This document shows positions 8,162-46,261 of a stretch of DNA of 64,000 bases, in pieces. The notes beneath the pieces are model-generated. The model saw only the letters and a program-made list of their open reading frames with translations. It searched no databases and was not told the origin of the DNA. The DNA comes from Parachlamydiales bacterium (GTDB lineage Bacteria > Chlamydiota > Chlamydiia > Chlamydiales > Rhabdochlamydiaceae): contig CANJJB010000002.1 of NCBI GenBank assembly GCA_947474635.1, positions 6,533 to 70,532 on the forward strand, read 5' to 3'. A program made the translations under genes and the position numbers. Within the stretch, counting starts at the first letter, position 1. Each line of letters opens with the position of its first letter.

Positions 8162-8165
8162 AGTT

Positions 8166-8900: not shown

Positions 8901-8915
8901 CCTTTAGAAAGAGAT

Positions 8916-9566: not shown

Positions 9567-9599
9567 AATAACTCCTATTTTTGTGTTCAATCAGGCTAA

Positions 9600-9629
9600 A
9601 TTTTACCCTAGGTAATAAGTTTTTTACAA
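9600..9629 (-). promoter_or_regulatory. putative sigma70-like promoter for paralog B
   Basis: The minus strand reads TTGTAA-N18-TAAAAT. The surrounding ~48 nt is about 80% identical to the region upstream of paralog A. Confidence 0.3.
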
Positions 9630-9700
9630 TAGAAAATGTATATTATATCGGGTATTTGGTATTATCTCTCCATTCAGCGTTGCATTAAAATATAGAGTAT

Positions 9701-23083: not shown

Positions 23084-23096
23084 GTCATTATTCTTG
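23069..23096. repeat. direct repeat, copy 1 (contains stop codons of the RDD gene and of hepT)
   Basis: TTTGATCTAAAGTAAGTCATTATTCTTG, identical to 23821-23848. Confidence 0.9.
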
Positions 23097-23435
23097 TTCT
23101 AGAACAGCAACAATTTGCTTGAGCTGCTCACATAAGGATGGCAGATAATCGCGGAGTGTTTTCCAAACAACATCATGATCAATATGGAAATAGGCATGGA
23201 TCAGGCGATTTCTCATTCCAGTGGTATCTTTCCATGGGATTTGAGGAAATCGCTTTTGTGTTTTGTTAGAAATTTTTCCAGCGGCTTCCCCTATAATTTC
23301 AAATTCCCTAACAACAGCTGACAGAAACTGCCTGTCTTTATCCAAATCGATTCTTTTTCTTCCTCGGGCAAAAGAAAGAATAGCTTGAGCAGAGTCAAGC
23401 ATATGTTTAAAGCGAATTAAATCTTTATTTTCCAT
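23088..23435 (-). CDS. hepT: HepT-like HEPN/DUF86 toxin
   Basis: 115 aa with HEPN motif R-x4-H-x-Y (RNRLIHAY). Confidence 0.85.
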   Translation of the reverse strand: MENKDLIRFKHMLDSAQAILSFARGRKRIDLDKDRQFLSAVVREFEIIGEAAGKISNKTQKRFPQIPWKDTTGMRNRLIHAYFHIDHDVVWKTLRDYLPSLCEQLKQIVAVLEQE

Positions 23436-23733
23436 AGATAGTGTATGCTTTTTCTAAGACGTCATTTCGGAAGAAAGGGCTTAAATCGTTCGGAGTTTTT
23501 AAATCGACTTTTCGCCCAATAATTTCGCCAAGTTCTGATTCAATACCTGCAAAGCTGAAAAGATGAGGAATGTGTTTTTTTTCAAATTTGACCAATATGT
23601 CTACGTCACTTTTCTCTGAAAAACTAGAAGTTAAAATAGATCCAAAAAGAGCCAAATAAACAATATGGTATCTTCTACAAAATTTTTCAATCTTACGCTT
23701 GTCCAAGCCGATGGGAATCTTTTTCACGAGCAT
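23425..23733 (-). CDS. mntA: MntA-like minimal nucleotidyltransferase antitoxin
   Basis: 102 aa with LFGS...SDVDILV nucleotidyltransferase motif. Overlaps the hepT start by 11 nt. Confidence 0.85.
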   Translation of the reverse strand: MLVKKIPIGLDKRKIEKFCRRYHIVYLALFGSILTSSFSEKSDVDILVKFEKKHIPHLFSFAGIESELGEIIGRKVDLKTPNDLSPFFRNDVLEKAYTIYGK

Positions 23734-25775: not shown

Positions 25776-26372
25776 ATGGCCAAGCTTTATTTTAGATATG
25801 GAACGATGGGAAGTGCAAAAACATTGAATTTACTAGCTGTCGCTCATAATTACCGCCAGCAAGGCAAAAGGGTTTTACTCCTAAAACCTAGTATGGATGC
25901 TAGATTTGGCTCAAATACTATTACATCGCGTGCAGGACTTGAAATGGAAGCAGATGTTTTAGTAGCAGATGCTACAGATCTTTTTGATATAGACTTTAGC
26001 TGCATTAACTGCATTTTGGTCGATGAAGCTCAATTTTTTTCCATACATCATATACAACAGCTGCGTGATATTGCTCTTATAAAAGATGTTCCTGTTATCT
26101 GTTACGGCCTTAGAACCGACTTCAAAGGAAAGCTATTTCCAGGCTCCATGAGACTCATGGAACTTGCTGACTCTATCGAAGAGATCAAAGCAACTTGCTT
26201 TTTCTGTAACAAGAAGTCGACAATGAACTTAAGACATATCGATGGAAGAGCAGCAATCGACGGCCCCACCATCCAACTCGGCGCAGAAGAGAGTTATTTC
26301 CCTGCTTGCTACCGTTGCTACTATGATCAGATTAAAAATGCTGAGGAAGCTCTAGTCAGCTGCCAAACTTAA
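25776..26372 (+). CDS. tdk: thymidine kinase
   Basis: P-loop GTMGSAKT, DEAQFF, and a C-terminal Zn ribbon CFFC...CYRCY. Confidence 0.93.
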   Translation: MAKLYFRYGTMGSAKTLNLLAVAHNYRQQGKRVLLLKPSMDARFGSNTITSRAGLEMEADVLVADATDLFDIDFSCINCILVDEAQFFSIHHIQQLRDIALIKDVPVICYGLRTDFKGKLFPGSMRLMELADSIEEIKATCFFCNKKSTMNLRHIDGRAAIDGPTIQLGAEESYFPACYRCYYDQIKNAEEALVSCQT

Positions 26373-27520
26373 ATCTCATCATTGAGAATTTTTGCTCTAT
26401 AATCATTCATGAGCTGTACCATAAAGTATAGGTTGTGAATGGTTGTCAGGGTGAGTGCTGTCACTTCTTTGGCTTTAAAAAGATGGTGGATGTAGGCAAC
26501 GCTGAACTGTCTACATGTAGGGCAGAGGCATTCTTTGTCAATCGGCTCGAAGTTTCTAGCATTTTCACCTTTAGTGATGTTAAGATTGCCTTGAGGAGTG
26601 AGTGCCGTTCCATGTCTTGCAGATCTTGTGGGATAAGAGCTATCGAATGTATCAATACCAAGGGGGATGGAGGCTTCAATCGAACTTAAATCTCCAATAC
26701 CGAGTAGGTGATTAGGCTTATCAGAAGGAATAAGGGGAAGAAGGGTTGAGAGCATCTCGATCATTTCTGTTTTATTTTTCCCCACGCTTCCACCAATTGC
26801 AAATCCATCAAAGGGAAGATCTGCTAAAAACTCGCAGCTTTTACGGCGAAGAGCTGCGCTTACTCCGCCGTGAATGACAGCGTACATCGCTTGATCTTGG
26901 GGATTTTGCAAATGAGCATCAAGTGATCTTTTTTCCCAGCGGTGCGTGCGCTCAAGAGACTCTTCGAGAAGCTTAGAGCAGATGTGATACGGCGGCAATT
27001 CATCAAAGGGGATGATGATGTCAGCGCCTAAATCTTTTTGCGCGGCAATTGAGCTTTCCGGTGTCAGCATTACTTTCGAGCCATCTCTATAGGAGCGGAA
27101 GAGCACGCCTTCTTCTGTGATTTTTAAAACAGACCCATCAGTTTTTTTTGTTCCTTTGCTTTTTAACTCATTTGCAACAGAGCCGTAGGCTAAGCTAAAA
27201 ACTTGAAAGCCTCCAGAGTCTGTAATGATGGGGAGCTTTCTATTGATGAACTGGTGGAGGCCGCCTGCTTCTTTGACAACTTGTGTCCCCGGCTGCAAGA
27301 GAAGATGGTAGGTGTTGCAGAACATGAGCTGCAGCCCTAGCTGCTCAACTAAGATGCTATCTAACGCTTTGATCGTGCCATTTGTTCCAACAGCTACAAA
27401 GTTAGGGGTATCAATGACTCCATGGGGAGTTGTGATCTTGCCTACTCTTGCGCGCGATTTTGTAGAGGTATGAATGATTTCAAACTTCATGGCGGACAAA
27501 CCTTTTAGAAAATTGCGCAA
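26369..27520 (-). CDS. tgt: tRNA-guanine transglycosylase
   Basis: Blocks FVAVGT, DSGGFQV and LLGIGD, plus Zn site CLCPTC...H. Confidence 0.93.
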   Translation of the reverse strand: MRNFLKGLSAMKFEIIHTSTKSRARVGKITTPHGVIDTPNFVAVGTNGTIKALDSILVEQLGLQLMFCNTYHLLLQPGTQVVKEAGGLHQFINRKLPIITDSGGFQVFSLAYGSVANELKSKGTKKTDGSVLKITEEGVLFRSYRDGSKVMLTPESSIAAQKDLGADIIIPFDELPPYHICSKLLEESLERTHRWEKRSLDAHLQNPQDQAMYAVIHGGVSAALRRKSCEFLADLPFDGFAIGGSVGKNKTEMIEMLSTLLPLIPSDKPNHLLGIGDLSSIEASIPLGIDTFDSSYPTRSARHGTALTPQGNLNITKGENARNFEPIDKECLCPTCRQFSVAYIHHLFKAKEVTALTLTTIHNLYFMVQLMNDYRAKILNDEI

Positions 27521-28145
27521 AAAACGTCATGCTTAAAATGATGACCATTTTGATGAGAAAGCTAAAGATAATAATATCTAAAATAGAAGAGACGAGGCCA
27601 TAGAGTCCAAGTACGCTAAAAAGTAGCGTATCTAGCAGTTGAGAGTTAAAAAGCGCAATCAGGTTCCTTTTATTCCAACTCCATCTCGGGAACTTATCTT
27701 TTAACAGCGCAAAAAACCTAATGTCAACTTGCTGCACTAGAAAAAAAGAGATTAAAGAGGCAATGAGTAGCCGGGGAGTCGGGCTTAGCAGCGCAAGGTA
27801 ATGTAGGTGGGAGGAGTCTTCCAAGCTAGGACTATACATCAGATGCAGCTGGGACATCAGCCCAAAAAAGAGCATCGAAAAGAAGCACAGCCATATCGTT
27901 TGACGGGCGCTTTCTTTCCCAAAATATTCTTGAAGGAGATTTAAGTTAAGCGTAATGCCGACAGCAAAGACATCAGAGCAGGTGATATTCCATCCAAAGA
28001 GCAGCATCTGCTTGAGCACAAAAAAATTAGCCAAAACGGCCATGAGGGCAGCCATTACGATGAGTGCCTGTTGCCCAAGGCGCAAGGCCCCAAAAGATAG
28101 GACCACCACTAAAAGAATGTGAACTACAAAAATCAATTCATTCAT
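27480..28145 (-). CDS. yhhQ: YhhQ/DUF165 queuosine-precursor (or queuine) transporter
   Basis: 221 aa with 6 TM segments. C-terminal blocks (QVDIRFF, NSQLLDTLLF) resemble YhhQ. Overlaps the tgt start by 41 nt. Confidence 0.75.
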   Translation of the reverse strand: MNELIFVVHILLVVVLSFGALRLGQQALIVMAALMAVLANFFVLKQMLLFGWNITCSDVFAVGITLNLNLLQEYFGKESARQTIWLCFFSMLFFGLMSQLHLMYSPSLEDSSHLHYLALLSPTPRLLIASLISFFLVQQVDIRFFALLKDKFPRWSWNKRNLIALFNSQLLDTLLFSVLGLYGLVSSILDIIIFSFLIKMVIILSMTFFAQFSKRFVRHEV

Positions 28146-28198
28146 AGAGAAAAAAGGATACCTGGAAAAGATTTTTTAGGGTACTCTTTTTGCCAATT

Positions 28199-29185
28199 AT
28201 GGCGCTATTAAAGCAAGATTCTCACGGCTGCCCCTACCTGATACTAGCTCCTATGGAAGGAGTGGGGGATGCCTCTTTTCGCAAGGCAATGGCCTCCATT
28301 GGAGGCTTCGATGAGGCTGTTACAGAATTTTTAAGAGTTCCCATGAACGCCCATATTCCAAGTCTATCTAAGCACTACAACGCGCAAGAACTAGGCTCAC
28401 TACCACTAGCCGTTCAACTCATGGGCTCAGATCCTTTACTTATGGCTCTTATGGCGCGTGAAATGGAGCGCAAGGGCGCCCACCGCATTGATATTAACTG
28501 TGGATGTCCTTCCAATACAGTGACAGGCAAAGGCGCTGGATCGAGTTTATTAAAAGATCCTAACTTTCTCTACCAAGTAGCAGAATCTGTTGTAAAAGCT
28601 GTAAAAACGCCTGTTACCATCAAGATGCGCTCAGGGTATGAAGACATTTCTTTATTTAAAGAGAACCTCTTAGCTGCTCAGGAAAGTGGAGTAGCCTTCA
28701 TTACACTCCACCCCCGCACCAAAGTTGATGGTTATGGGCCTCCTGCTAGATGGGACCTGATTGCTGAGGCAAAGTCTATCTTAAAAATACCCCTTGTTGG
28801 CAACGGCGACATCTTGAACGTAAATGATGCTTTAAGAATGCTCAAAGAGACGAGCTGCGATGCTCTTATGATTGGGCGGGGTAGTATCATCAACCCTTTT
28901 GTTTTTCAACAAATCCGAGCCCATTTTTCAAAAACAGACTACGTTGTTGATCCGGAAAAGCTTGAGACTTATTTCACAGCCTTTATTTCTAAAATGCCAC
29001 CTGACATGACCCCTAGAGGAAAACTTGGTAAAATCAAACAGCTCATGAGCTTTTTCTTCAAAGGATCGCCCGAGCTTTTGGCTAAGCGTCAGGAGGTACT
29101 AGCCTCTAAGCATGAGACGATGGAGTCTCTACTTGCGTATACTTTGCCTGTTCTAAAAAATGCATTGCGTCATCTACTTGCTTAG
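28199..29185 (+). CDS. tRNA-dihydrouridine synthase
   Basis: Blocks LAPMEGVGD, DINCGCP and LHPRT. ATG at 28199 chosen over the upstream TTG. Confidence 0.88.
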   Translation: MALLKQDSHGCPYLILAPMEGVGDASFRKAMASIGGFDEAVTEFLRVPMNAHIPSLSKHYNAQELGSLPLAVQLMGSDPLLMALMAREMERKGAHRIDINCGCPSNTVTGKGAGSSLLKDPNFLYQVAESVVKAVKTPVTIKMRSGYEDISLFKENLLAAQESGVAFITLHPRTKVDGYGPPARWDLIAEAKSILKIPLVGNGDILNVNDALRMLKETSCDALMIGRGSIINPFVFQQIRAHFSKTDYVVDPEKLETYFTAFISKMPPDMTPRGKLGKIKQLMSFFFKGSPELLAKRQEVLASKHETMESLLAYTLPVLKNALRHLLA

Positions 29186-29378
29186 CGAAGATTTTATCAA
29201 TACGTAGCAGAAGTTGTGAGATTTTTGCCTTGGTATCTTCCATTTCTTTAGAGCTAATTTCTTTTAATAGCAGAGCATCCAGGCGTCCTATTTGCCCGAT
29301 AGCCTGGTAACTGTCATCGAGATTGAGGGGAACCATGTTTTCTAGGGCTGCTAGCTCTTGTCTAATTGCTGTTCCCAT
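29106..29378 (-). CDS. small helical (coiled-coil-like) protein closing the paralog array
   Basis: 90 aa from ATG 29378, with AGGAG at 29385-29389. Overlaps the 3' end of paralog P1 by 17 nt and the dus 3' end by 80 nt on the opposite strand. Confidence 0.35.
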   Translation of the reverse strand: MGTAIRQELAALENMVPLNLDDSYQAIGQIGRLDALLLKEISSKEMEDTKAKISQLLLRIDKIFAKQVDDAMHFLEQAKYTQVETPSSHA

Positions 29379-30261
29379 ATACTGCTCCTTGCTCATTGAA
29401 GTAGGGCACAAGTTCAGGGTGATTATCTGCTAACCACTGGCCTAGCTGCTTTGTTTTGCGCTCAAGCTCCATCTGAGCTGTGAGAGGCTCTTTGAGAGAA
29501 TCATCCAAGACAAAAGATCCGACATCAAGAGATACAGCTTTATTATCTTGGCACCCATAATTTCTTCTAAGGCCGTTGTCATTATCACGTATGCCTTGTG
29601 CTGAGCGCTTTTGGATGTATTCAAAGACGCTATGAATAAGCTTTTTGGCACCTTCTACATCATTATTTGCAAGTTGCTCTTCCATCTTAGTAAAAATGCG
29701 CTCTGCATATTTTTGCACAATGAAGGAAGTTGTATTGAGATCAACTAGGTAGTGGATTCCTAGATTGTCAATGACTTCAAGAGGGGAGAGGTCTTTTGTG
29801 GGATTGAAGTGGAGGTAGCACACGCCGGTTTCTTCTTGAAGATGCTCTCTTGCAATTTTGCAGCTCTCAAAGATGGGATAAAATCTCTCATTACGCGTTT
29901 TTAAAAATTCAAAGCGGCGCTCTTTAAGAAACCCTGGTAAAGAAGAGTCTAGCGCATGAATCAAAGCATCAGGAATATGGTACTGCTTTTTGAAAAACTT
30001 AATCACGAGGGTTTTGTCCTCGCTTACAAAGACATAGGATTGTCCGCCGCGGTCTAGAAAACGGAAGGGTTGGGCAAGGACTTTAGGATCAAAGTTAGAA
30101 TGTGTAGTAAGAGATGCATCATAGGGTATGTTCTGATCAATAGCTGTAAAAGTAAAACCCTTGGTTTTATCTTCGCAAAATGACTTTGCCAGCATAAAAC
30201 CTACGATAAAAAGGGATAATTTAAAGAGCTTTTTGTATTTGCGTATCAAAGTAGGCCACAT
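29362..30261 (-). CDS. signal-anchored protein-kinase-like paralog P1
   Basis: 299 aa. Blocks in order: anchor ..SFC..GF, DRGGQSYVFVSEDKTLVIKF, A.EHLQEETG, DNLGIHY, FIVQK, DNGLRRNYG, LDVG. Confidence 0.7.
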   Translation of the reverse strand: MWPTLIRKYKKLFKLSLFIVGFMLAKSFCEDKTKGFTFTAIDQNIPYDASLTTHSNFDPKVLAQPFRFLDRGGQSYVFVSEDKTLVIKFFKKQYHIPDALIHALDSSLPGFLKERRFEFLKTRNERFYPIFESCKIAREHLQEETGVCYLHFNPTKDLSPLEVIDNLGIHYLVDLNTTSFIVQKYAERIFTKMEEQLANNDVEGAKKLIHSVFEYIQKRSAQGIRDNDNGLRRNYGCQDNKAVSLDVGSFVLDDSLKEPLTAQMELERKTKQLGQWLADNHPELVPYFNEQGAVYGNSN

Positions 30262-31024
30262 ATTCTGGTTGGTTATTTTGGAGGTATTCTCTTAGAGATA
30301 AAAGTTGTAAAAAGAGCGCTCTTTGAAAGTAGGGATGGAAAGCAACTCTTGGATCTTTTTTGAGTGATCCACAGTCAATGAGGAGCATCTTACCATCCAT
30401 CATTCCAAAGTTAGCTTTAAGCCTTGGATCTAAGTTAACAATCCCTTTCAAGGAGATGGCAGAAATAAGCTCTATCATCCCATCTATCTGCCCCTCAGAA
30501 ATAGAAGAGGTGAGAAGATCTGCTTTTTTTTGGATGAGGAACTGCGTTTGTGCAATATTGATAGTGTGAGCAATGCCTAGTTTGTCAATCAGCGTTACCA
30601 CCCTACTTTCTGATGTTCTTTCAAGGTGATCTGCTATGATGCCGGTTTCTTCCCTAAGTTCTTCTGAGGCTAGCTTGCAGCATGCAAGTAATTCACTTAA
30701 CCTTTTTCCCCGCTTTTGCAAGTAAGAATCTCTCATGTGGCTTAAAGGGGAGGGAAGGGGTAGCTTTGCTAGCCAAGGTAGTGGTTTACGTCTACTTTGC
30801 TTGATGAATTTGATGACAGCTTTGCCATCTTCACTTTCAAAAGCATAAAACTGCTTACCTGATCCCAAAAAATAAAAAGACTCTTGAGGCTTTAAAGCGC
30901 TGTCTAGTTGCATCTTGCTACTTATGATTTTAGAAGGAGTAAACCCTTCTGTCTGGGAGTAGCAGAACCTCTCAGCAAGCACAAAAAATAAGAAAAAAAG
31001 AGCCCACTTTTTCCAGACTTTCAC
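30221..31024 (-). CDS. signal-anchored protein-kinase-like paralog P2
   Basis: 267 aa. Blocks in order: anchor ..RFC..GF, LGSGKQFYAFESEDGKAVIKF, EELREETG, DKLGIAH, FLIQK, DPRLKANFG, IDCG. Confidence 0.7.
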   Translation of the reverse strand: MKVWKKWALFFLFFVLAERFCYSQTEGFTPSKIISSKMQLDSALKPQESFYFLGSGKQFYAFESEDGKAVIKFIKQSRRKPLPWLAKLPLPSPLSHMRDSYLQKRGKRLSELLACCKLASEELREETGIIADHLERTSESRVVTLIDKLGIAHTINIAQTQFLIQKKADLLTSSISEGQIDGMIELISAISLKGIVNLDPRLKANFGMMDGKMLLIDCGSLKKDPRVAFHPYFQRALFLQLLSLREYLQNNQPEYVAYFDTQIQKAL

Positions 31025-31776
31025 AGATGAGCCTCTGGGTAGTTTATTTTAACCCAGGTGACAAATTTTTCTGGGTACTCTCTGTTTTGAATAGGGGCAT
31101 TCACAAATTTACCGGGATCTAAGAAGCAAGGTCTGCCATCGATGAAGCCTAAGTTTTGCGCAAGGTGGCTATCTGTATCATCAATTGCATGGCTTCTTCT
31201 GATTTCCATAAGATGCCCGAGAGCATCAAATACGGACTGGACATCATTTGAGTGTGCAAGGTAGGAATTAAGAGGCTCTCCTTTTTTCTGCACTACAAAA
31301 AGAGTCTTTTGAAGAGATAGCTCATGCTGAATGCCTAATTTATCTACAATCGTTACTGTTTGATCAAAAGGTGTTTCTGTATCCAATTTCAAAAAGATGA
31401 GGCCTGATTCTTCAGGAAGCCTTTCAAAAGCAAGCAGGTAACCTTCGATGTCACGCATCAGCTTACCTATTTTTTTTGTATGATATTTTTTAAGCGGAAC
31501 AAAAGCATTGGGGCTGTTTTTAAAAAACTTAAGAACATATTTTTGATCTTCAGATACAAAGACAAATGTTTGTCCTCCTCTTGCTAGATAATGAAACGGC
31601 TGTTTCAAAATCTCTTGAGTGGCAAGTGTCTCTCCCTGGTTTGTAAAGGGAAGAGTAGGGGCCGCGCTAATTCTTCTTATAGAAAAGCCTGCTGTTTCTT
31701 TTTCACAAAATAAAGAAATGGCATAAAACAAAATAAGAAAGGCTGAAAGTTTAATAGTCTTTATAAGCATTTGCAT
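31021..31776 (-). CDS. signal-anchored protein-kinase-like paralog P3
   Basis: Start set at ATG 31776 by comparison with the paralog N-termini (the ORF track gives 31818). Blocks in order: ARGGQTFVFVSEDQKYVLKF, ERLPEESG, DKLGIQH, FVVQK, DSHLAQNLG, LDPG. Confidence 0.65.
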   Translation of the reverse strand: MQMLIKTIKLSAFLILFYAISLFCEKETAGFSIRRISAAPTLPFTNQGETLATQEILKQPFHYLARGGQTFVFVSEDQKYVLKFFKNSPNAFVPLKKYHTKKIGKLMRDIEGYLLAFERLPEESGLIFLKLDTETPFDQTVTIVDKLGIQHELSLQKTLFVVQKKGEPLNSYLAHSNDVQSVFDALGHLMEIRRSHAIDDTDSHLAQNLGFIDGRPCFLDPGKFVNAPIQNREYPEKFVTWVKINYPEAHL

Positions 31777-31801
31777 AGAATAGCAGAGATGGGAAAGATT
31801 T

Positions 31802-31942
31802 TCAAAGTTTTTTATCAATAAAGCGGCAAGCAGTTTTCTTTAAATCTTTATACTCTTTTAATATTCTTTCTTTGTGCATAAAAAAAAGAACAGCGAGGAC
31901 TATGGCAGCTAGCAAAAATATTTTAAATAGTAGTTTGATCAT
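31802..31942 (-). CDS. 46-aa single-TM mini-ORF within the array
   Basis: MIKLLFKIFLLAAIVLAVLFFMHKERILKEYKDLKKTACRFIDKKL. Its ATG overlaps the P4 stop as ATGA. It falls below the ORF-track length cutoff. Confidence 0.3.
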   Translation of the reverse strand: MIKLLFKIFLLAAIVLAVLFFMHKERILKEYKDLKKTACRFIDKKL

Positions 31943-32772
31943 GAAAGCTCCTTAAGAAGATGGCTATCTAAAGAGGGGTAATCCTCGGAGAGTCTATTGT
32001 GCAGGCACTCTGTCACCCTCCGGATTTCTTCCCTTTGGGTACTTAAGCTGCCTTTTTTTAAACTGCCTACATCTAGTTCAATAGCGCTGCCTTCCAGACA
32101 CCCAAAATTTTTAAAAAGATCGACATCGGTGTTGATAATCCCTTTTTTATATTGGCTTGTAAGAAGAGCTACCAAATGAGAAATAACGCGTTTTGCCTCT
32201 TCTTCCTTATCCTCATCCATTAAATTTTTTAAATGGGGGTAAAGGGGATCTACACGTTTTTGCAGTATGAAGTCTGTCTTATCAAGGTCAAGTGTATGGC
32301 AAATACCAATTTTGTCTACAATCACAAGATTTTGATGAAAAAGATCCGTCTTATTGAGATGGAGAAAAAGAAGGCCTGTTTCTGCTTTCAAGTCTTCATA
32401 GGCAATCTTATAGCTTGTAAAGTCTCTGGCAAGTTTTGCCTCTAGCTCGCTGCACTTAGCAGGGGATGTAAGCTCTTCCCAGAAAGAGGGCCTAATATGA
32501 CTATAGCGGATGAGCTTCAGCACATACTTTTGATCTTCAGACACAAAAACAAAGGCTTGAGAGCCTTTACTCAAATAAGAAAAAGGTTGATCTAGCACTT
32601 TTTTAATGGAAGCAAGCTCTGTATCTTCTACAGCTGCTACTTCCCACACAGGGTTGAAAGGAAGGTCAGATGAGATCTTACAGATCTGAAAGCCATCCAT
32701 CTCTTTTCTGCAAAAGACAGACATCCCTATAAAGGCAGCTACAAAAAGAAGGGTCTTAAGTAGGTATTTCAT
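31939..32772 (-). CDS. signal-anchored protein-kinase-like paralog P4
   Basis: 277 aa. Blocks in order: SKGSQAFVFVSEDQKYVLKL, EDLKAETG, DKIGICH, FILQK, DVDLFKNFG, LDVG. Confidence 0.7.
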   Translation of the reverse strand: MKYLLKTLLFVAAFIGMSVFCRKEMDGFQICKISSDLPFNPVWEVAAVEDTELASIKKVLDQPFSYLSKGSQAFVFVSEDQKYVLKLIRYSHIRPSFWEELTSPAKCSELEAKLARDFTSYKIAYEDLKAETGLLFLHLNKTDLFHQNLVIVDKIGICHTLDLDKTDFILQKRVDPLYPHLKNLMDEDKEEEAKRVISHLVALLTSQYKKGIINTDVDLFKNFGCLEGSAIELDVGSLKKGSLSTQREEIRRVTECLHNRLSEDYPSLDSHLLKELS

Positions 32773-33613
32773 GTACTAGCCTTTGAAGTTCTTTATCCAA
32801 TGTTTTGTATTCTTTTTCTAGTCTTAAGTGGAGCTTATCTGTAATCCGGATGATTTCACCCTTATATTTTTGAGGATTACTCTCAGAGGCATCTTTTTTA
32901 AATCTACCTGGATCGATTTGGATGGGCCTTCCACTCATCACTCCAAAGTTGGTAAAGAGATCAGGGTCTTTGTCAAAGATCTCTTTTTGACAACGTGTTA
33001 CAATAAGAGCAACTAAACGAGATAAAAGCTCCTCTGCCTCTTTTTCTTTTCCCTCATTCATTAACTTTTGAAGAGCTGGATAAAAAGGCTCAGCCCTTTT
33101 TTGCACCACAAACTCAAGCTCATCTAAAGAAAGGAAATGGGAAATACCCAGCTTATCAATGAGTTCTATCTTTTGCTTTAGCCTATCCGTCTTATTTAGA
33201 TGGAGATACACAAGTCCTGTCTCTTCCTTCATTTCATCATACGCCAATTTGTAGCTTGTAAAGTCTTGGCAAAGCTTTGCCCTAAGCCTTACTACACGTC
33301 TTTGTACCCTTTCAAAGGGCAGCTTTTTTAAAAACGGCGCCTCTCCCATATGGTCATATCTAAAGAACTTGATCACGTAGCGCCCATCTTGCGAGGCAAA
33401 GACAAAGGCTTGAGCTCCCTTTCCTAAATAGCTAAAAGGCTGATCCAACACCTCTTTCACTTCAGCAAGATCTTGCGCCCCTACTTCCCACTCAGGATGA
33501 AAGGTCAAGGAAGAAGAAATCTTATCAATCCGAAAGCCATCTGTTTGCTTTTTACAAAACAAAGCAACTGCTATGAATCCACCAATAAAAAGAACCGATT
33601 TAAGCCACATCAT
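32756..33613 (-). CDS. signal-anchored protein-kinase-like paralog P5
   Basis: 285 aa. Blocks in order: LGKGAQAFVFASQDGRYVIKF, DEMKEETG, DKLGISH, FVVQK, DPDLFTNFG, IDPG. Confidence 0.7.
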   Translation of the reverse strand: MMWLKSVLFIGGFIAVALFCKKQTDGFRIDKISSSLTFHPEWEVGAQDLAEVKEVLDQPFSYLGKGAQAFVFASQDGRYVIKFFRYDHMGEAPFLKKLPFERVQRRVVRLRAKLCQDFTSYKLAYDEMKEETGLVYLHLNKTDRLKQKIELIDKLGISHFLSLDELEFVVQKRAEPFYPALQKLMNEGKEKEAEELLSRLVALIVTRCQKEIFDKDPDLFTNFGVMSGRPIQIDPGRFKKDASESNPQKYKGEIIRITDKLHLRLEKEYKTLDKELQRLVHEIPT

Positions 33614-33662
33614 AGGGGGTAGTATAGCTCAAGGAAGCGGTTTTTTCAGAGTGTTAATTTTA

Positions 33663-33913: not shown

Positions 33914-34864
33914 ATGTTTTCTTACTTAACATCATTAGCTGCGTCTCTTTATTACGGAAATAATATTTATCAAAGTTTGAAATCAGCAGCGTCCGGTCTT
34001 CAAAAAAACAAGGACCTTTCTCATGTAGCAACAGTAGAGAAAATTAAGACTGCTCTAGAGCCACTCCTATCTAAATATCATCTGGAAAATAATTTGGAGA
34101 TTGATCTAGTTAAAGGAGTTGGACCTGCTGCTGCAATAGGAATAAATCTTCCTGGATTAAGAAAGAACGTGATGGCTTTTTCTCCCCAATTCTACAATCT
34201 GGATCCAGCAGCTGCTCTTTGGGTTGCAAAACATGAGCTAGGACATATCAAAAATAACGATACTCTTACGATGGGGCTTCTTATTCCCGCAATCACTTCG
34301 TGTGCGATTGCAGCAGGCATTCAATCTAAAATAAGCAATGCCTATCTAGCTATTCCGGCAGCGTTGCTCGGTTCTTTTGTGGGAGGAGAAGTTTTTAGAA
34401 TCTTATTTACAAGATGGCGAGAAGGAAAAGCTGATGACCATGCTAATGAACATAGTTCCTCTGAAGAGTTAAAAGGAGGGAGAAGATGTTTACTTGCTAT
34501 GCAAAGACAACAAGTGAAAGAAAGAGAGCACGATTTTCTGCTAGGACATGGTTTATCTCTTTCAGGAGAAGTCGTCTATGCACCCAATGGCGATGATAAC
34601 ACGGATCTAGAGCATCCTGCCCTTTCAAGTCGCATCGAGAAAATAGAGAAAGAATTGGAAAGAAGAGGTGTCTCCTTTGACCAAGAAAAAGAAAAAGAGG
34701 AAGAGCAGATCAGTCGATTAATGGACTTTTGTGAAGATGAGATATACGAAAGTAAAAAAGCTGCCGGTCTTACTGTTCCAATAATGAAACCTAAAGGGGC
34801 AAGAGAAATAAAGAAATGGGAAGAAGAAAAAAAACAGAAAGCCTTGTCGCATGAGGCTTTGTAA
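33914..34864 (+). CDS. membrane HExxH metallopeptidase (M48/M56-like)
   Basis: HELGH is followed by two TM helices and an acidic block (REGKADDHANEH). The C-terminal tail is highly charged. Confidence 0.6.
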   Translation: MFSYLTSLAASLYYGNNIYQSLKSAASGLQKNKDLSHVATVEKIKTALEPLLSKYHLENNLEIDLVKGVGPAAAIGINLPGLRKNVMAFSPQFYNLDPAAALWVAKHELGHIKNNDTLTMGLLIPAITSCAIAAGIQSKISNAYLAIPAALLGSFVGGEVFRILFTRWREGKADDHANEHSSSEELKGGRRCLLAMQRQQVKEREHDFLLGHGLSLSGEVVYAPNGDDNTDLEHPALSSRIEKIEKELERRGVSFDQEKEKEEEQISRLMDFCEDEIYESKKAAGLTVPIMKPKGAREIKKWEEEKKQKALSHEAL

Positions 34865-34897: not shown

Positions 34898-36157
34898 TCA
34901 ATCTTCAGATTTGATTAGCCATTGATAGAGGGGGATGAGGTGAATTGTTTTTCCCTCTATCAAGAGCTCATCTTCCAAGGAAAGTGTTAAAATTTTCCCT
35001 GAAGGAAGTTCTAGACTTTGGAGACATTCTAGCATAGCATTAACCTCGCGATCCCGCGTTTCTTTGCTTTCAAAATCGCAGTAGCATACTTGTATGGCAT
35101 CTACAGGTTTCCCCAATTCTGTAATTACAAAATCGACTTCTTGTTTTTGTTTATAATAAAACACTTGTTTGTTGTTTCTTCTTAATTCTAAATATACAGC
35201 ATTTTCTGCTAAACGGCCCCAGTCTTCTCGATCAGATTGTAGGGATACTGTACGTAGCCCTGTATCAATCACATAAATTTTCTTAGGATCGCGCGCTTGG
35301 ACTTTGAGGTTGGCGTGGTAACGGCTCATTTCAAAAACAAGAAAAGCTTGTGCCAAATAACCTGTTAGCGTTGAGGCTAGTTCAATCGAAATTGCAAAAG
35401 CCTTTCGTAGAGAATTATAGGAATGCAAACAACTTAAGCCGGTCCAATAAAAATTGACCACTTGATGCAGAGCTTGCTGATTTTTAATGGAGTGTCTTGC
35501 AACAACATCTCGCAGCACAATATCGCTAAGATACTGTTTTAATAAAATGATCCGATCATTTTCGTTCGGGGTTAAGATGATTTTTGGAAAGCCTCCCCAA
35601 CGCAAGTAGTTTTCTAGTGCGCGTAGCCAAGCACTCTTTGAAGATGGAGCCTCACCTAAAAATGTCAAACATTCGGCAAACGAAAGCGGCCAGATAGTTT
35701 GTTCAATAACTCGTCCAGAAATAGCTGTAGCAATCTCAGAACTCAATAAATGAGAGGAAGAGCCTGTTACAACGACTTGGTAATGTCCTAGATCAATTGC
35801 TTTTCGTACCCACCTCTCCCATCCTTGGATATTTTGGATCTCATCTAAAATCACAAGCTTGGGAGCTTTTCCTGTTTCTTCTTCATATAGAGAAATCAGT
35901 TGGTCGATGACTTCAACGCCAGCTCCTGGGAAAAAAATTGGATCCTCAAAATTAAAAAAGAAAGTCTCCTCCAATCGCCCCATAGCCAATTGGACGGTCA
36001 TGGAAGATTTTCCGGAGCGCCTCACACCTGTAAGTGCTAGGCATAGATCTTTTTGTTGGTTAAGAAGAGAGCTTCTAGGAATAACTAAATGACTGTTTTT
36101 TCTCAGCCATTGCTGCCAATCCTGTAAAGCTTTCTTTAATTCGCCTCGTGTTGTCAT
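34898..36157 (-). CDS. AAA_14/DUF4143-type ATPase
   Basis: Walker A GVRRSGKSS and Walker B LVILDEIQ, with a C-terminal region of DUF4143 type. Confidence 0.78.
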   Translation of the reverse strand: MTTRGELKKALQDWQQWLRKNSHLVIPRSSLLNQQKDLCLALTGVRRSGKSSMTVQLAMGRLEETFFFNFEDPIFFPGAGVEVIDQLISLYEEETGKAPKLVILDEIQNIQGWERWVRKAIDLGHYQVVVTGSSSHLLSSEIATAISGRVIEQTIWPLSFAECLTFLGEAPSSKSAWLRALENYLRWGGFPKIILTPNENDRIILLKQYLSDIVLRDVVARHSIKNQQALHQVVNFYWTGLSCLHSYNSLRKAFAISIELASTLTGYLAQAFLVFEMSRYHANLKVQARDPKKIYVIDTGLRTVSLQSDREDWGRLAENAVYLELRRNNKQVFYYKQKQEVDFVITELGKPVDAIQVCYCDFESKETRDREVNAMLECLQSLELPSGKILTLSLEDELLIEGKTIHLIPLYQWLIKSED

Positions 36158-36406: not shown

Positions 36407-37216
36407 CTACTTAACCAAAATCGTGCGCTGCGTCTCTCTGAAAAAACCTGTCATGACATGGTTTTGAGGATCTAAGAGCTCGAGCTTGATTTTGTGCGAG
36501 CCGCTCTTTAGACCATAGATGTAATAAGGAGCCCACTCTGTTAAGAGGCGCTTATCCTTACCATCAATCGTAAGACGGACTTTATATCCATCTTTAGATA
36601 GCTGGGTGTTGGAAATATAGAAGTCGAGAAGGATCGGCTGATTTCCTTTAAACTCACCTTCAGGTTGGTTGTAGGTTAAGTAAGGTTTAGAAAGATCAAA
36701 GGGATTATCTTGCTTGGGTCCTACAAAGAAATAAGAAGCTGCGTAGCATGAATTTCCTTTGAGGCTCTCTCCATAAGATCTTACTAGGAACATCCGAATT
36801 AAATGCGGCCCTGGCTTTAAGTTGAAGGGGATTTTAGTTTCTAAGGTTGAGTTGAAATCGGCCTCTTCTGAATCCGTAAAAGAATCGATTGCATCATTGA
36901 CTTCCATGTAAGACTCGTTATCGATCAAGATGCGGATTGCCTGACCTTCTCTACTATTGCGGATTTCTTTTGCTCTTGGTATGTAACTATCATAGCCGAT
37001 GGGGTAGCCTTGGAGGCGCATTTGAATGCTCACGGGATTTTTCTGATTATCCGCGCCCCTTTCAGGAAAAGCAAGATGGATTTCAACGGAATCTGGTTGA
37101 GGTGTTGCTTCCACGGGAACTACACGTACATCTCCTGTTCCATGATTATCTTCAACAACAGCTGCGCAAAGAGAAGTAGAAATCAATAATCCCAAACAAA
37201 CAATTGCTTTTTTCAT
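36407..37216 (-). CDS. secreted hypothetical protein, 269 aa
   Basis: Signal peptide MKKAIVCLGLLISTSLCAA. The composition is beta-rich and no family is recognised. Confidence 0.65.
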   Translation of the reverse strand: MKKAIVCLGLLISTSLCAAVVEDNHGTGDVRVVPVEATPQPDSVEIHLAFPERGADNQKNPVSIQMRLQGYPIGYDSYIPRAKEIRNSREGQAIRILIDNESYMEVNDAIDSFTDSEEADFNSTLETKIPFNLKPGPHLIRMFLVRSYGESLKGNSCYAASYFFVGPKQDNPFDLSKPYLTYNQPEGEFKGNQPILLDFYISNTQLSKDGYKVRLTIDGKDKRLLTEWAPYYIYGLKSGSHKIKLELLDPQNHVMTGFFRETQRTILVK

Positions 37217-37279: not shown

Positions 37280-38620
37280 CTAGTTTTTATCCATTAGGCT
37301 AAGCAACGCCGGCTGTTGCTCTGGGTGCGCAAGTGTTACAACTGCATAGAGCGGCCTTGAATCGATTTTATCTGTTTTCTGATAACTTTTAGCCCAAAAA
37401 CGCATGCCAACAGGTGATTGTTTATGCTCTTCTAGAAATTGATGCATACTTCGCAGGGTAGACCCATGACCACTTTTGACTTCGATTGGAAGAATTTTGT
37501 GCTGAAAATCATATACATAATCAATTTCTGCTTGAGCCCCATTAGATTCTCTTTTCCAAAAAAATAGATCAGGCTTTGATGTAGGAGAGGCATAGGTAAG
37601 AAGCTCTTGTCCGACAAAAGCCTCTACAATAGTACCTCGATTAATCAGGTCTTTATCGGGGTTCAAAAACCAAGCTGCTAAGTCTAGCCCTAAAAGCGTT
37701 TGGGCAATGCCAACATCTAGAAAAATGAGCTTAAACCAGTTAAGATTGACTTCTCCTCCGAGAGGCGCTCCATTTGCGGCGCTGTGGGTAATTTGGTGAA
37801 CTACATTAGCTCTACGTAAAAGATCAAGAGCAGGGGCAAGTTCTCTTTTTTTGTAGTCTCCATGAATTTCAGAATATTTAAACTGCTTTCCAATAAAATG
37901 GGGGATTTGATTAAAAAGAATACCCAGGTAGGGTAGCTGGTGTCTTTCAGCATATTTATAAAAATCTTGCTGGTAAATTTGCACCAGATCTTTTTGCACT
38001 TCATGGCAGGCTCTAGGATCTTGAGTTTCTACCCAAGCGCTTATGGCCTCCGGCATCCCTCCAATTGCCAGATAATGGTTCACAAGATCAAGAAGTTTAT
38101 CATGAAGGATTTTAGAAAAGGGCTGCTTGCTTAATAGGGCATCAATGAATTGAGCATTGCCTGTTGCAGCAAGAAATTCTACAAACGAAAGGGGATATAC
38201 ATAGAGCACGTGTATCCGTCCGACAGGCAGCCCTACATTTTCGACAGCAAAGTCAACCAAAGATCCTGCAGCAATAACATGCAGCTCTGGCATTTTTTCA
38301 TAAAAATAGCGTAAAGCTATAATAGCTTGGGGAGCTGCTTGTATTTCATCTAGAAAAAGCAGCGTCTTTCCAGGAACAATGGTTGTCTGTGTAAGTAGGC
38401 CGAGCTCCCACAGAATTCTTATGGGCTCCAAATCCTTTTCAAAAATGGTCTTGGCCGCAGGAGTAAGTTCAAAGTTGATCTCCAGCATAGATTCGAACTG
38501 TTTGCCAAGCTGTCTTACAGAATGCGTCTTCCCAATTTGTCTTGCTCCCTTGAGAAGAAGGGGCTTGCGGTTCCTTTCATCTTTCCAAGTCTTTAAGTGC
38601 CAGTCAATTAGTCTTTTCAT
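37280..38620 (-). CDS. AAA_14/DUF4143-type ATPase
   Basis: Walker A GARQIGKTH and Walker B LLFLDEIQ. Distant paralog of 34898-36157. Confidence 0.82.
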   Translation of the reverse strand: MKRLIDWHLKTWKDERNRKPLLLKGARQIGKTHSVRQLGKQFESMLEINFELTPAAKTIFEKDLEPIRILWELGLLTQTTIVPGKTLLFLDEIQAAPQAIIALRYFYEKMPELHVIAAGSLVDFAVENVGLPVGRIHVLYVYPLSFVEFLAATGNAQFIDALLSKQPFSKILHDKLLDLVNHYLAIGGMPEAISAWVETQDPRACHEVQKDLVQIYQQDFYKYAERHQLPYLGILFNQIPHFIGKQFKYSEIHGDYKKRELAPALDLLRRANVVHQITHSAANGAPLGGEVNLNWFKLIFLDVGIAQTLLGLDLAAWFLNPDKDLINRGTIVEAFVGQELLTYASPTSKPDLFFWKRESNGAQAEIDYVYDFQHKILPIEVKSGHGSTLRSMHQFLEEHKQSPVGMRFWAKSYQKTDKIDSRPLYAVVTLAHPEQQPALLSLMDKN

Positions 38621-40612: not shown

Positions 40613-41605
40613 ATGAGCATAGAAATTGTTTTTTTTATTGTCTTGCTGGGTTTCATCTTTGACTATACAAACGGCTTTCATGATGCAGCAAACGTCGTCT
40701 CAACTGTCATTGCCACAAAAGCGATGCGGCCCCTTGCCGCCATCTTAATGGCAGCTGCTTTAAATATCATCGGAGCCACCCAGATTGGGGGAGTTGCTCA
40801 CACAATCAGCGCAGGGCTGGTGCAGGCGGGCATCGTCACAGAAGTTCTTGTCTTATCTGCTGTTGCAGGCGCAATTGTCTGGAATATCATCACATGGTAC
40901 TTTGGCATACCCGGTAGCTCCTCTTATGCTCTCATCGGAGGACTTTTGGGATCGGCCTTTTTTCAAGGGGGCCTCAAGATCATTTTATGGAACGGCGTTA
41001 TCTTTAAAGTGTTAATTCCCATGCTGATATCGCCGCTTTTAGGCTTTGTTTTAGCCTTTAGCTTCATGAAGGGGCTTACATTTTTTTTCACCCTAAGAGA
41101 AAAAAAATCACATGAACAACTATTTAGACGTCTACAAATAGGATCAGCAGGGTGCGTGGCTCTTGCCCACGGCCTTAACGATGCACAAAAAAGCATGGGT
41201 ATCATCACCCTAGGCCTTTTTGCCGGCCACCCCATTCCGTCCTTACATATCCCTTTATGGGTTATCTTCTCCTGTGCCGTAGTCATGGGTCTTGGAATGG
41301 CTTCCGGAGGTATTAGGATCATTAAAACCGTTGCCTATTCGATCACCGATCTAAAACCCATCCAAGGGTTTGCAGCTGAGATGAGCTCTTCCATTGTTAT
41401 TTTAGGCGCTAGCTTATGGGGCATGCCCATTAGTTCAACCCACATGATCGTAGGTAGCATCACAGGTGTGGGCTCTGAGAAAGGTCTTAAAGGTGTTCGC
41501 TGGAAAACAATGCAAAAATTAGGCTTTGCATGGCTCATGACCCTTCCTGTGGCAGGTTTTATTTCTTATTTAATTTACAGCTTAGTTTTAACTATCTTTT
41601 ATTAA
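40613..41605 (+). CDS. pitA: PiT-family inorganic phosphate transporter
   Basis: NGFHDAANVVST and GLNDAQKSMG signature pair, with about 10 TM segments. Confidence 0.88.
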   Translation: MSIEIVFFIVLLGFIFDYTNGFHDAANVVSTVIATKAMRPLAAILMAAALNIIGATQIGGVAHTISAGLVQAGIVTEVLVLSAVAGAIVWNIITWYFGIPGSSSYALIGGLLGSAFFQGGLKIILWNGVIFKVLIPMLISPLLGFVLAFSFMKGLTFFFTLREKKSHEQLFRRLQIGSAGCVALAHGLNDAQKSMGIITLGLFAGHPIPSLHIPLWVIFSCAVVMGLGMASGGIRIIKTVAYSITDLKPIQGFAAEMSSSIVILGASLWGMPISSTHMIVGSITGVGSEKGLKGVRWKTMQKLGFAWLMTLPVAGFISYLIYSLVLTIFY

Positions 41606-41678
41606 GATAGTTAATTTAATTACACTAATTAATTCAAATATTTACTATAATGTGATTAATGTTGCAAATAGGAGCCCC

Positions 41679-43745: not shown

Positions 43746-43804
43746 AGTTTTGTAGTTGCCACACAAATACAATTTATTTATTGTCTGGTAAAATGGAGCC
43801 TTCC

Positions 43805-45694
43805 ATGAACTACAAGCGCTTGAGCTATCTTCTTCTGACATCACCACTCCTACTCCATGCAAATGAACCTTGCGTAAGTACTCACGATCTAAATCACGTG
43901 TCCATCCGCCACATAGAATCCAAAGGTCTTGGTTATACAGATGGCTACACAACTCTTGAAGGATTCTTTGTGCCCCTATCAGCTTTAAACACCCGTTGGG
44001 TTCCGTTCTTAGATGTCAGAGGGCATATCTTTAACAACAGCAAGCCCGCTGCGAATACAGGCGTAGGTCTTCGTTACATCGAGTCAAGAGTATGGGGTGG
44101 CAATGTTTATTACGATTACCGCAAAACTCGTGAGCGTAACTACAACCAAGTCTCTTTTGGATTTGAGTCTCTTGGTAGATATCTTGATTACCGCATCAAT
44201 GGTTATTTCCCTGTAGGTAAACACAAGGGATCTCTTTCGGATGCAACCTTTGCTCATTTTTCTGGCAACTCTCTTTACCTCTCTCGCAAGCAGGAGCTTG
44301 CTCTGAAAGGCACCAATGCAGAAGTAGGTGTTCACATTGCTAAAGTCAAAGGGATCGACTTCTATAGCGCGCTCGGCCCCTACTATTTTGCAAATGATAC
44401 GAAGCACACCTTCGGTGGTGAGTTTAGAATAGGCATGGATGTACTGAACATCTTGCGCATCGAAGGCAACACTTCTTACGATCACCTCTTCAAATGGATC
44501 GGACAAGGGCAGATTAGCCTCTCTTATGCATTCACTCCTAAAAAAATGAGCCGCAAAGAGAAAAAAGGTAGCTGCTCATTCCACGGGCTGGTGCGCGATA
44601 GAGCCTTTCAGCGTGTAGATAAACAGGAGATCATTGTTGTAACAACTCAGAAGAAAAAGAGCGTAGCGATTAACCCTGCAACAGGACTTCCTTATACCTT
44701 CTGGTTTGTGGATAATACAAGCCACTCTGCTGGAACGTATGAGTCGCCTTTTAATACTCTGCTAGATGCTCACAATCATTCTGGGCCTAATGACATCATT
44801 GCGGTGCTGCCTGGGGATGGGACAGATAAAGGGATGAATGCAGGGATTATATTACAAAATGGCCAGAAGCTGTGGGGGATGAGTGTTGTGCATGCACTAC
44901 CAACAACTCTGGGGACAATTAAGATTAAGCCTCTAGCAACCACGATGCCGACTTTGAGTAATAGTGGTGACAGTGTTGTAACTGGTGCCAATAATAATGA
45001 TATTGTAGGACTAAAGATCGTGAGCGGTGAAAATTCGGTGGGTATTTTATTGAATCAAGCTGGAAAATTCAACATTGAAAACAATATTATTTTTTGCAGA
45101 AGTAATTTTGGGGTATATCTGCATAATATATCAACAAATACTAATATCGCAAATAATACATTCACAGGCACTACTGGAACCACAGGAATTGCATTACTTG
45201 GTTGTTCTGGAAATTGCACCATTAGCAACAATTTCTTAACAGGAATGAGCTACGGTATCACCATCGGATATATTAATAAGCTTTTAGACTGCTCCGTTGT
45301 TGGCAACAAAATAGACTTTGTTCCTAGCGCCTCACAGATCAATACTGCAGGCATCAGTTGTAATGTGGGTGATTGGATAGAGCTTACTTGTAATTCTGCA
45401 CGTATATACAATTCAGGCGTCAGACTATCCTTTGATACTCTGCTGGCAAATACTAGAGTCCTAATCTCAGATAATCAGATCAACAATTTGAATCTTGCTC
45501 AAAACCAATCCCCTTCCGGGATATTGATTCAGCTCAATGGCAACCTATCTGCAACCTTAAGAAACAATCAATCCACAACTCCAGATCTAGTAGGCGCGCC
45601 AGCTTATCTCTTTCAGAACCTAGGCGGAGCCACTAAATCCCAAATCAACTTCACACCTGACAACATCGGAAACGCTAAGTATACAGGCTTCTAG
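43805..45694 (+). CDS. inverse autotransporter (intimin/invasin-type beta-barrel) with right-handed beta-helix passenger
   Basis: Signal peptide [19 protein letters not shown]. The barrel region ([43 protein letters not shown] ... ISLSYAF) aligns by eye with the intimin beta-domain. The C-terminal half has PbH1-like repeats ([33 protein letters not shown]). Confidence 0.68.
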
Positions 45695-46260: not shown

Positions 46261-46261
46261 A

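Follow-up and report, generated by a model that had tools for sequence, protein, structure and literature searches.

What could a row of five related genes, none of which belongs to a named family, be doing in the genome of an obligate intracellular chlamydia? The question is posed by a minus-strand array, whose genes are here called P5 to P1, within a 64,000-nucleotide stretch of DNA from a Parachlamydiales bacterium (GenBank assembly GCA_947474635.1, contig CANJJB010000002.1, positions 6,533 to 70,532). This whole stretch is referred to as the window, and gene coordinates are given on it. The answer favoured here, which draws on structure prediction as well as on the comparison of genomes, is that the array is on balance probably an operon of exported enzymes with a protein-kinase-like (PKL) fold. 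These enzymes would carry out phosphotransfer in the periplasm, with the product of a conserved upstream gene, SP269, as their partner.

P5 (32756-33613; 285 amino acids (aa)) opens the array. It is followed on the same strand by P4 (31939-32772; 277 aa), P3 (31021-31776; 251 aa from an ATG, or 265 aa if an alternative TTG start at 31818 is used), P2 (30221-31024; 267 aa, with a GTG start) and P1 (29362-30261; 299 aa). A preliminary description of the window, made without database searches, had placed five co-directional genes at these positions. An independent gene caller run on the source contig (k141_5457869, 154,790 bp, from ENA metagenome ERZ27277814) agrees, reporting the same five genes together with two small open reading frames (ORFs) of 46 and 90 aa. 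The tight coupling noted in that description follows from the coordinates: P5 and P4 overlap by 17 nucleotides (nt), P3 and P2 by 4 nt, and P2 and P1 by 41 nt.

The five proteins had also been described as homologous yet strongly diverged, with a series of shared motif blocks in a common order. Both points are borne out by a full-length alignment, in which the paralogs are 29-36% identical from end to end. The blocks that are invariant in all five are, in order, a Lys within V[IL]K, EETG, D[KN][LI]GI, QK, D-x2-L-x2-N-x-G and D-x-G. Expressed in the numbering of P1, the invariant residues are K88, E144, D165, Q183, K184, D228, L231, N234, G236, D246 and G248.

A profile constructed from the five sequences retrieves 651 relatives, the best of them at an E-value of 1e-124. 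When a 74-sequence profile is used instead, 2,544 representatives at 50% identity are found, and 2,380 of these score below 1e-10. Judged by such searches, the family is real, large and sharply bounded. It is also unrecognised, as the preliminary description had put it. Pfam, NCBIfam and PADLOC give no match for any of the five paralogs, even at E<=10, and the Pfam comparison that had been proposed as a check includes the kinase clan. No recurrent Pfam family emerges when 74 members are scanned singly, the only kinase-clan family among their matches being FTA2 (four members, best E 0.052). The gathering thresholds of curated PKL families (Pkinase, ABC1, RIO1, Kdo, WaaY, APH, YrbL and others) are not reached. 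Sequence-profile searches of the PDB return no kinase and only a chance match to the isomerase KduI (E 0.05-0.9). All family members carry the database name 'hypothetical protein', and no description of the family was found in the searchable literature. Membership in any named PKL sequence family was rejected because neither a library nor a profile gives a match.

Predicted fold and catalytic residues

A template-free AlphaFold2 (AF2) model of P5, computed from a 74-sequence alignment, has a mean pLDDT of 96.1 and a pTM of 0.90. Comparison of this model with the PDB using Foldseek yields 37 matches at E<=1e-3, all of them to protein-kinase-like folds. The top-ranking folds are MSMEG_1954 and Rv3197, which are of the ABC1/UbiB type, followed by WbdD, AceK, Bud32, RIO2, PknB and MAP kinases. 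Among the 58 matches found in the BFVD viral library, essentially all are kinases (RIO-like, ABC1-like and giant-virus Ser/Thr types). The structure prediction and fold comparison that had been recommended for each paralog, run for P5, thus return a kinase-like fold. The earlier reading of the genes as protein-kinase-like holds up, in that the model retrieves only kinase folds and the shared motifs fall on canonical elements. Membership in the PKL fold superfamily is supported by these predictions.

In the P5 model, strands at residues 60-65, 69-74 and 79-84 are succeeded by a helix (101-127), a further strand (134-138) and helices at 177-209 and 247-281. This arrangement agrees with a bilobal kinase fold, in which a five-stranded sheet and the αC helix make up the N-lobe and helices the C-lobe. 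The glycine-rich motif GKGAQ (residues 64-68) lies between the first two strands, and K82 lies within the third, which corresponds to β3. The segment from GKGAQ to the VIK of β3 is encoded at 33368-33424 on the minus strand. D216 and N222 come after a helix (190-209) and a strand (212-214) in the positions of αE and β6, and D234 follows a strand (229-232) in the position of β8. This second segment, DPDLFTNFG...IDPG, reads from 32968 on the minus strand to the D-x-G Asp codon at 32912-32914; both segments were checked by translation. The spacing of six between D216 and N222, in place of the canonical five, had been pointed out before and is confirmed in the alignment of all five paralogs. D216 and D234 are 18 residues apart. 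In the kinase PKA, D166 and D184 are also separated by 18 residues.

The predicted core of about 225 residues thus contains a G-x-G-x-Q loop, the β3 Lys, a long αC-like helix, the D-x5-N loop and the D-x-G Asp, with no large substrate-binding subdomain. Only about 50 residues follow D-x-G. These form mainly two helices (247-268 and 270-281), and the model has no activation segment. A eukaryotic-type (ePK/Hanks) kinase was considered and set aside, since there is no activation segment, no room for αF to αI and no match to Pkinase.

Conservation of the catalytic residues was assessed in 313 near-full-length members from 75 related genomic loci, which were retained from a search that covered each species by a single genome and gave 189 relatives. 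G66 and K82 occur in all 313 members; D216, N222, D234 and Q171 in 312 each; and D153 in 308. The set of Lys, Asp, Asn and D-x-G Asp is complete in 311 members, the other two lacking at least one of the four, and it is complete in all five paralogs of the window. The multiple alignment called for in the preliminary description therefore upholds the invariance of these positions. Q68, D153 and Q171 are further near-invariant residues that lie beyond the canonical set. Because their catalytic residues are kept, the copies are not pseudokinases, and judging from the alignment all of them look active. The idea that the array encodes dead structural or scaffold pseudokinases, or consists of spurious ORFs, has nothing specific in its favour beyond the uniform 'hypothetical protein' annotation. 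It is effectively refuted by the conservation of all four catalytic and metal-binding residues, and the clear purifying selection across 2,544 representatives and the confident AF2 model also speak against it.

Among known systems, the ABC1/UbiB/COQ8 family (PF03109; Rv3197, 5yjz; MSMEG_1954, 7cz2) provides the best Foldseek matches, with E-values of 1.7e-5 to 1e-4. The two groups are alike in being membrane-associated PKL proteins with a Gln past the nucleotide loop, V-[IV]-K in β3, a catalytic loop that starts with D-P, and [IL]-D-x-G. However, the chlamydial proteins have no detectable profile relation to this family and lack its KxGQ domain and Ala-rich loop. Their length is about 230 aa rather than 400-550 aa, their Asp-to-Asn spacing is six rather than five, and their Sec-type signal is N-terminal, in contrast to the transmembrane helices at the C-terminus of UbiB.

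The resemblance to ABC1/UbiB raises the alternative that the PKL scaffold has been turned to chemistry other than phosphotransfer. The proteins could be ATPases or lipid chaperones like UbiB and COQ8, or they could be AMPylases, glutamylases or nucleotidyl-transferases in the manner of SelO, SidJ and NiRAN. ABC1/UbiB members are reported to be ATPases that act on lipid intermediates (PMC13418538), and new PKL families have repeatedly proved to be non-kinases (PMC6858067, PMC8017715). The Gln after the glycine-rich loop is reminiscent of UbiB (G-A-Q-A-F compared to S-I-A-Q-V-H), as are V-I-K and the D-P loop start. The unusual Asp-to-Asn spacing and the extra invariant residues Q68, D153 and Q171 could likewise reflect a different reaction. 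Even so, the canonical phosphotransfer set is invariant, a UbiB-type KxGQ N-terminal domain is missing and the sequence profiles show no relation to ABC1. Non-kinase chemistry is accordingly rated as improbable.

The RIO and Bud32 kinases are similar to the chlamydial proteins in size, in having no activation segment and in their truncated C-lobe, and Bud32 has the best target-normalised TM-score in the Foldseek comparison (0.52). In contrast to the array proteins, they are cytoplasmic factors for ribosome biogenesis or tRNA modification, are encoded by single-copy genes, and have a spacing of five in HGDLxxxN; there is no sequence match between the two groups.

N-termini and the SP269 partner

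The family members begin with a K/R-rich n-region and a hydrophobic h-region, which are joined to the kinase core by a 35-residue linker (QTDGF...PEWE). In P5, the Sec-type signal segment comprises residues 1-20 and is encoded at 33554-33613 on the minus strand. The h-region is 11-16 residues long and frequently ends in 'FC'. For the 246 members whose N-termini were compared, the uncharged stretch has a median length of 12 residues, is no longer than 16 in 216 of them, and measures 11 or 15 in the copies of the window. Lys or Arg is present in the n-region of 243 members. Of the two flanks, the one on the N-terminal side is the more positive in 67% of members and the one on the C-terminal side in 13%. 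A small-x-small motif occurs near the end of the h-region in 146 of the 246 and is clear in P5 (AVA/L), P3 (AIS/L) and the family member P0127 (AHA/V), which gives these three a plausible site for signal peptidase.

Judged by composition, this architecture resembles a Sec signal peptide rather than a standard membrane span, and it suggests export. The paralogs had been described as 'signal-anchored'. Of this, the hydrophobic targeting segment stands, and its shortness makes a Sec signal peptide the better fit compared to a stable membrane anchor. Natural two-domain fusions of about 500 aa (P0001, P0004, P0005, P0123 and P0127) are informative in this regard, as their second domains have no hydrophobic segment. 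Such a loss is expected if the segment targets the protein to the membrane and both domains reside on the same side. The fusion P0127 has no FC/TDGF motif and begins with a classic signal peptide (...AHA/VSS).

Two other classes of envelope protein were considered. A Cys is found near the N-terminus in 220 of 313 members, and the residue preceding this position is Phe in 218 of 313 or Leu in 50 of 313. A lipoprotein was rejected because Phe occupies position -1 of the Cys and the lipobox [LVI][ASTVI][GAS]C is missing. An Inc protein was rejected because there is a single hydrophobic stretch of 11-16 residues, compared to a bilobed one of about 40-60.

The SP269 gene (36407-37216, minus strand) lies upstream of P5 and outside the coordinates that the preliminary description had given for the array (29106-33613). 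Its product is predicted to begin with a signal peptide and to contain a pair of Ig/Fn3-like β-sandwich domains. SP269 is present in 47 of the 75 loci. In 45 of these it lies upstream of the array on the array's own strand, and in 11 no more than 100 bp separate it from the first array gene. Its 777 relatives, none of which has a Pfam domain, are about 50-60% identical. An AF2 model (pLDDT 85.7) consists of a signal helix followed by the two β-sandwich domains, and Foldseek places it closest to Fn3 modules, to RbmA, a scaffold protein of Vibrio biofilms, and to the glycan-binding protein SGBP-B. SP269 shares a signal peptide and two β-sandwiches with Vibrio cholerae RbmA and other tandem Fn3-Ig proteins (Foldseek E 1e-6 to 1e-7). 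However, this is a generic fold, matched at 10-13% identity and a TM-score of about 0.25, and functional equivalence is not implied. From the N-termini of the array proteins and the predicted export of SP269, we infer that an extracytoplasmic location of the kinase-like domains is likely.

The same segments might instead tether the domains to the cytoplasmic face of the membrane, where they would serve as small-molecule kinases for successive positions of a lipid-linked glycan, a lipopolysaccharide (LPS) or lipooligosaccharide core, or a membrane lipid. WbdD (4azs) is the second-best structural match, and both WbdD and the WaaP/WaaY/KdkA kinases (PF06293, PF06176) combine small minimal cores with non-protein acceptors at the membrane. 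Several such paralogs can be present in one operon, as exemplified by the LPS kinases of the E. coli waa cluster. A local alignment to WaaY, itself insignificant, pairs GDPHRGNF...IDLS with DKDPDLxTNFG...IDxG and so matches the catalytic loop and the metal-binding Asp. A minimal C-lobe that lacks an activation segment is typical of non-protein kinases, and the supply of ATP would be unproblematic in the cytoplasm. Nevertheless, known LPS and glycan kinases are cytoplasmic proteins that have no signal peptide, and their sequence match to the chlamydial family is insignificant. The h-region is too short to span a membrane in most members, the charge bias favours an N-in/C-out orientation, and in at least one member (P0127) the signal peptide is canonical and cleavable. 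SP269, the conserved partner, is itself predicted to be exported, no genes for LPS, lipid A or glycosyltransferases are found in the conserved neighbourhood, and Pfam gives no Kdo or WaaY match, even a weak one. Taken together, these features make a cytoplasmic-face location unlikely.

Age of the array and a proposed mechanism

The survey of copy number that had been proposed earlier for Chlamydiota, a phylum that proves to be the right one, was run across related chlamydial loci and indicates that 5-8 tandem copies are the usual state. Five copies are found in 25 of the 75 loci, six to eight in 24, and one in 12. The single-copy loci are mostly of the Parachlamydiaceae type, and this subtype occurs in cultured Neochlamydia (WP_052436051.1 and WP_197725085.1, both 'hypothetical protein'). 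The titles of the 75 loci name Chlamydiota, Rhabdochlamydiaceae or Parachlamydiales, or else metagenome-assembled genomes (MAGs) labelled Verrucomicrobia, Acidobacteria or proteobacterium. Chlamydial synteny is present in the loci with non-chlamydial labels that were checked (L007, L038 and L040), and each record that names a lineage is either chlamydial or has chlamydial synteny. The family appears to be restricted to one phylum, as far as named records show.

Within arrays of four or more genes, just 4 of 264 members have their nearest relative inside their own array, and the mean best identity is 0.38 within an array versus 0.62 between genomes. Since the nearest relatives reside in other genomes, the copies are old rather than recently amplified. 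A recent lineage-specific expansion, or arms-race battery, is ruled out for the same reason. Orthogroups recur in characteristic orders such as A-D-B-C-F, A-G-B-C-F-H-N, A-J-D-B-C-K-M-E and A-D-O-L. P5 belongs to type A, the best-conserved type, which leads nearly all arrays that have it. The order in the window is A-A-(P3)-L-W, where P4 groups with orthogroup A, P3 retains the four catalytic residues, P2 belongs to L and P1 to W; this array falls in the A-D-O-L(-W) group. These comparisons of sequence and gene order identify the array as an ancient operon, whose differentiated paralogs keep a fixed order across environmental chlamydiae.

Two related genomes deserve a separate comment. Locus L021, from the Rhabdochlamydiaceae MAG LVE1205-5, is the one most closely related to the window. 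There, 10 ORF fragments stand in place of an intact orthologous array (5980-10293 of that locus), and the counterparts of P5, P3 and P1 are split; either frameshift errors in the assembly or real decay of the array could be responsible. The MAG Chlamydiae bacterium Ga0074140 has an eight-copy array preceded by SP269; a second contig of this MAG carries a lone type-A gene that SP269 does not accompany (loci L017 and L020). Solitary and arrayed copies can therefore coexist.

Between genomes, the kinase-like genes are 30-50% identical, compared to 50-60% for SP269. Faster evolution than that of the neighbours, Sec-type N-termini and the obligate intracellular life of the chlamydia itself are traits that would suit secreted, host-targeted effectors. 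After Sec export, such proteins could leave the cell through type II secretion or within vesicles of the outer membrane, in the manner proposed for CPAF. Minimal kinases recur as an effector type (PMC9758233). However, old duplications kept in a fixed order are unlike the rapid turnover of effector repertoires, and the same orthogroups are present across chlamydiae that presumably have very different hosts. The proteins contain no eukaryote-like domains, and their structural neighbours are ancient housekeeping atypical kinases, not eukaryotic signalling kinases. A role as host-targeted effectors is considered quite unlikely on these grounds.

If the array proteins are periplasmic enzymes, as favoured here, Sec would carry each paralog across the inner membrane, after which it would be released or would stay tethered at the periplasmic face. 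Mg-ATP would be bound through the Lys, the Asn and the D-x-G Asp. The γ-phosphate would then be transferred to an acceptor specific to each paralog, with D216 as the catalytic base. These acceptors may be envelope or envelope-proximal glycans, lipids or proteins, for which the specificities would have been fixed long ago. SP269 could function as a common scaffold, as a presenter of substrate or as a substrate itself. Host ATP crosses the chlamydial periplasm en route to ATP/ADP translocases of the inner membrane, which makes the presence of periplasmic ATP plausible in these energy parasites. Because the predicted C-lobe is minimal and the neighbours include WbdD, ABC1 and LPS-kinase-like loops, the acceptors lean towards glycans, lipids or other non-protein molecules. 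It is possible, and suggested here only tentatively, that the 5-8 extracytoplasmic kinase-fold enzymes act with SP269 on a polymer or protein of the envelope, which they would phosphorylate at multiple sites in an ordered way or alter by another nucleotide-dependent modification. Such a set would be feasible only because these energy parasites have host ATP in transit through the periplasm.

Several observations weigh against this mechanism. The kinase assignment rests on predicted structure, and that the invariant residues share a single pocket is deduced from their secondary-structure positions. Foldseek TM-scores are modest (0.31-0.45, at E-values of 1e-5 to 1e-3), so no known family is a close neighbour. 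Neither of two candidates for the αC Glu is invariant, as E131 is Glu in 263 of 313 members and position 126 is Asp or Glu in 223 of 313. Comparisons using hhalign with E. coli WaaP, WaaY and UbiB, and with an ABC1 profile of four sequences assembled from PDB alignments, give no significant result. The probability assigned to the 313-sequence family profile is 0.25% when matched to this ABC1 profile. For E. coli UbiB alone the probability is 0.2%, and the insignificant alignments still pair expected motifs (VVIKV of UbiB with YVIKF). Many members have no clean AxA cleavage site, and some may thus remain tethered. The N-terminus of the P5 model is one continuous helix (residues 2-24), and a tethered, cleaved or cytoplasmic-face N-terminus would each be compatible with the data. 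Finally, in 27 of 45 loci a distance of over 500 bp separates SP269 from the array, so that co-transcription is not general, and SP269 is not nearby in single-copy loci of the Parachlamydiaceae type.

The fold itself is already known. What is new, when set against Pfam, NCBIfam and the literature, is the family, its D-x5-N loop, the export signal and an operon in which several paralogs keep a fixed order beside the gene for an Ig-like partner. For kinases, it is unusual that 5-8 differentiated paralogs are kept in order in an ancient operon, with individual export signals and an exported Ig-like neighbour. Kinase folds that lack a sequence match have repeatedly yielded new chemistry, as in SelO, SidJ, NiRAN, Fam20 and CotH. 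The eukaryotic secretory-pathway kinases Fam20, Four-jointed and POMK are PKL proteins with a signal peptide or anchor that use ATP outside the cytoplasm, and glycans are phosphorylated by several of them. They provide a functional analogy only, as they are eukaryotic, much larger, and absent from the best 50 structural matches. If the array domains act outside the cytoplasm, they would represent ATP-dependent enzymology that is rare in the bacterial periplasm, and ATP-dependent chemistry may take place in the chlamydial cell envelope. This would link the energy parasitism of chlamydiae with envelope biogenesis or with their interaction with the host, would supply a bacterial counterpart of the secretory-pathway kinases, and would add a new layer to chlamydial envelope biology. 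The homologs in cultivable Neochlamydia open the topology and activity of the family to direct testing.

Neighbouring genes

Two small ORFs had been grouped with the array. The first (31802-31942, minus strand) encodes a hydrophobic peptide of 46 aa, and its ATG does overlap the P4 stop codon (ATGA) as described. Its standing as an array component is doubtful, since a homolog is found only in the closest relative, L021, and in none of the other 74 loci; Pfam and NCBIfam give no family match. The second (29106-29378, minus strand; 90 aa) overlaps the 3' end of P1 and has a convergent overlap with the 3' end of dus. It does have the strong ribosome binding site that had been claimed for it (AAGGAG, 6 nt before the ORF). 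Across the 75 related loci, the closest relative included, it is without a homolog, and it probably lies outside the system. Because neither ORF is conserved, both were ruled out as system components and are not counted as parts of it.

P5 is not preceded by a Shine-Dalgarno sequence, and a TATACT hexamer resembling a -10 element ends 7 nt before its ATG (33613-33650, minus strand). This arrangement would fit a leaderless transcript or one with a very short leader. A scan for promoters and terminators performs at chance, with 17 found versus 17.5 expected and 6 versus 8.5, respectively, and is therefore uninformative about the transcription unit.

Between P5 and SP269, the window contains an M48-like peptidase gene (33914-34864, plus strand; Pfam M48) and an AAA_14/DUF4143 ATPase gene (34898-36157, minus strand) that matches the PADLOC candidate defence family PDC-S01 (4e-98). 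A second AAA_14/DUF4143 ATPase gene (37280-38620, minus strand) is located on the other side of SP269. The M48-like and AAA_14 genes are missing from the SP269-array junction in other loci; they interrupt the ancestral junction here as inserts and are not part of the system. Other genomes have different inserts at the same place, and the junction looks like an insertion hotspot.

The wider conserved neighbourhood has AlgH/YqgE, X697 and PiT on one strand, and SP269, the array, Vut1 (YhhQ-like) and TGT on the other. In the window, a PiT (PHO4) phosphate transporter gene (40613-41605, plus strand) and X697 (41652-43745, plus strand) are divergent from SP269. X697 encodes a conserved uncharacterised chlamydial protein of 697 aa that has no Pfam domain. 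The stretch at 42-44 kb has a GC skew of -0.25. An AlgH/YqgE-like gene follows at 45691-46296 (minus strand), and PiT, X697 and AlgH/YqgE are beside SP269 in 15-31 of the 75 loci. Downstream of the array, Vut_1, of the YhhQ-like queuosine-precursor transporter family, and TGT occupy 26369-28145 (minus strand). They are found in this position and on the strand of the array in about 20 of 75 loci, and in the window dus (28190-29185) intervenes on the opposite, plus strand. A functional link to queuosine salvage through Vut1/TGT, or to PiT/X697, was considered. Synteny is kept, no mechanistic connection is proposed, and these genes are regarded as neighbours only.

Two further features of the window lie at a greater distance from the array. 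An NTP_transf_2 and HepT-like (HEPN) gene pair, at approximately 23088-23727 on the minus strand, was identified from precomputed Pfam matches on the source contig and looks like an MNT/HEPN toxin-antitoxin module. A 637-aa protein encoded at 43781-45694 (plus strand) combines an inverse-autotransporter β-domain with a right-handed β-helix and is probably a surface adhesin.

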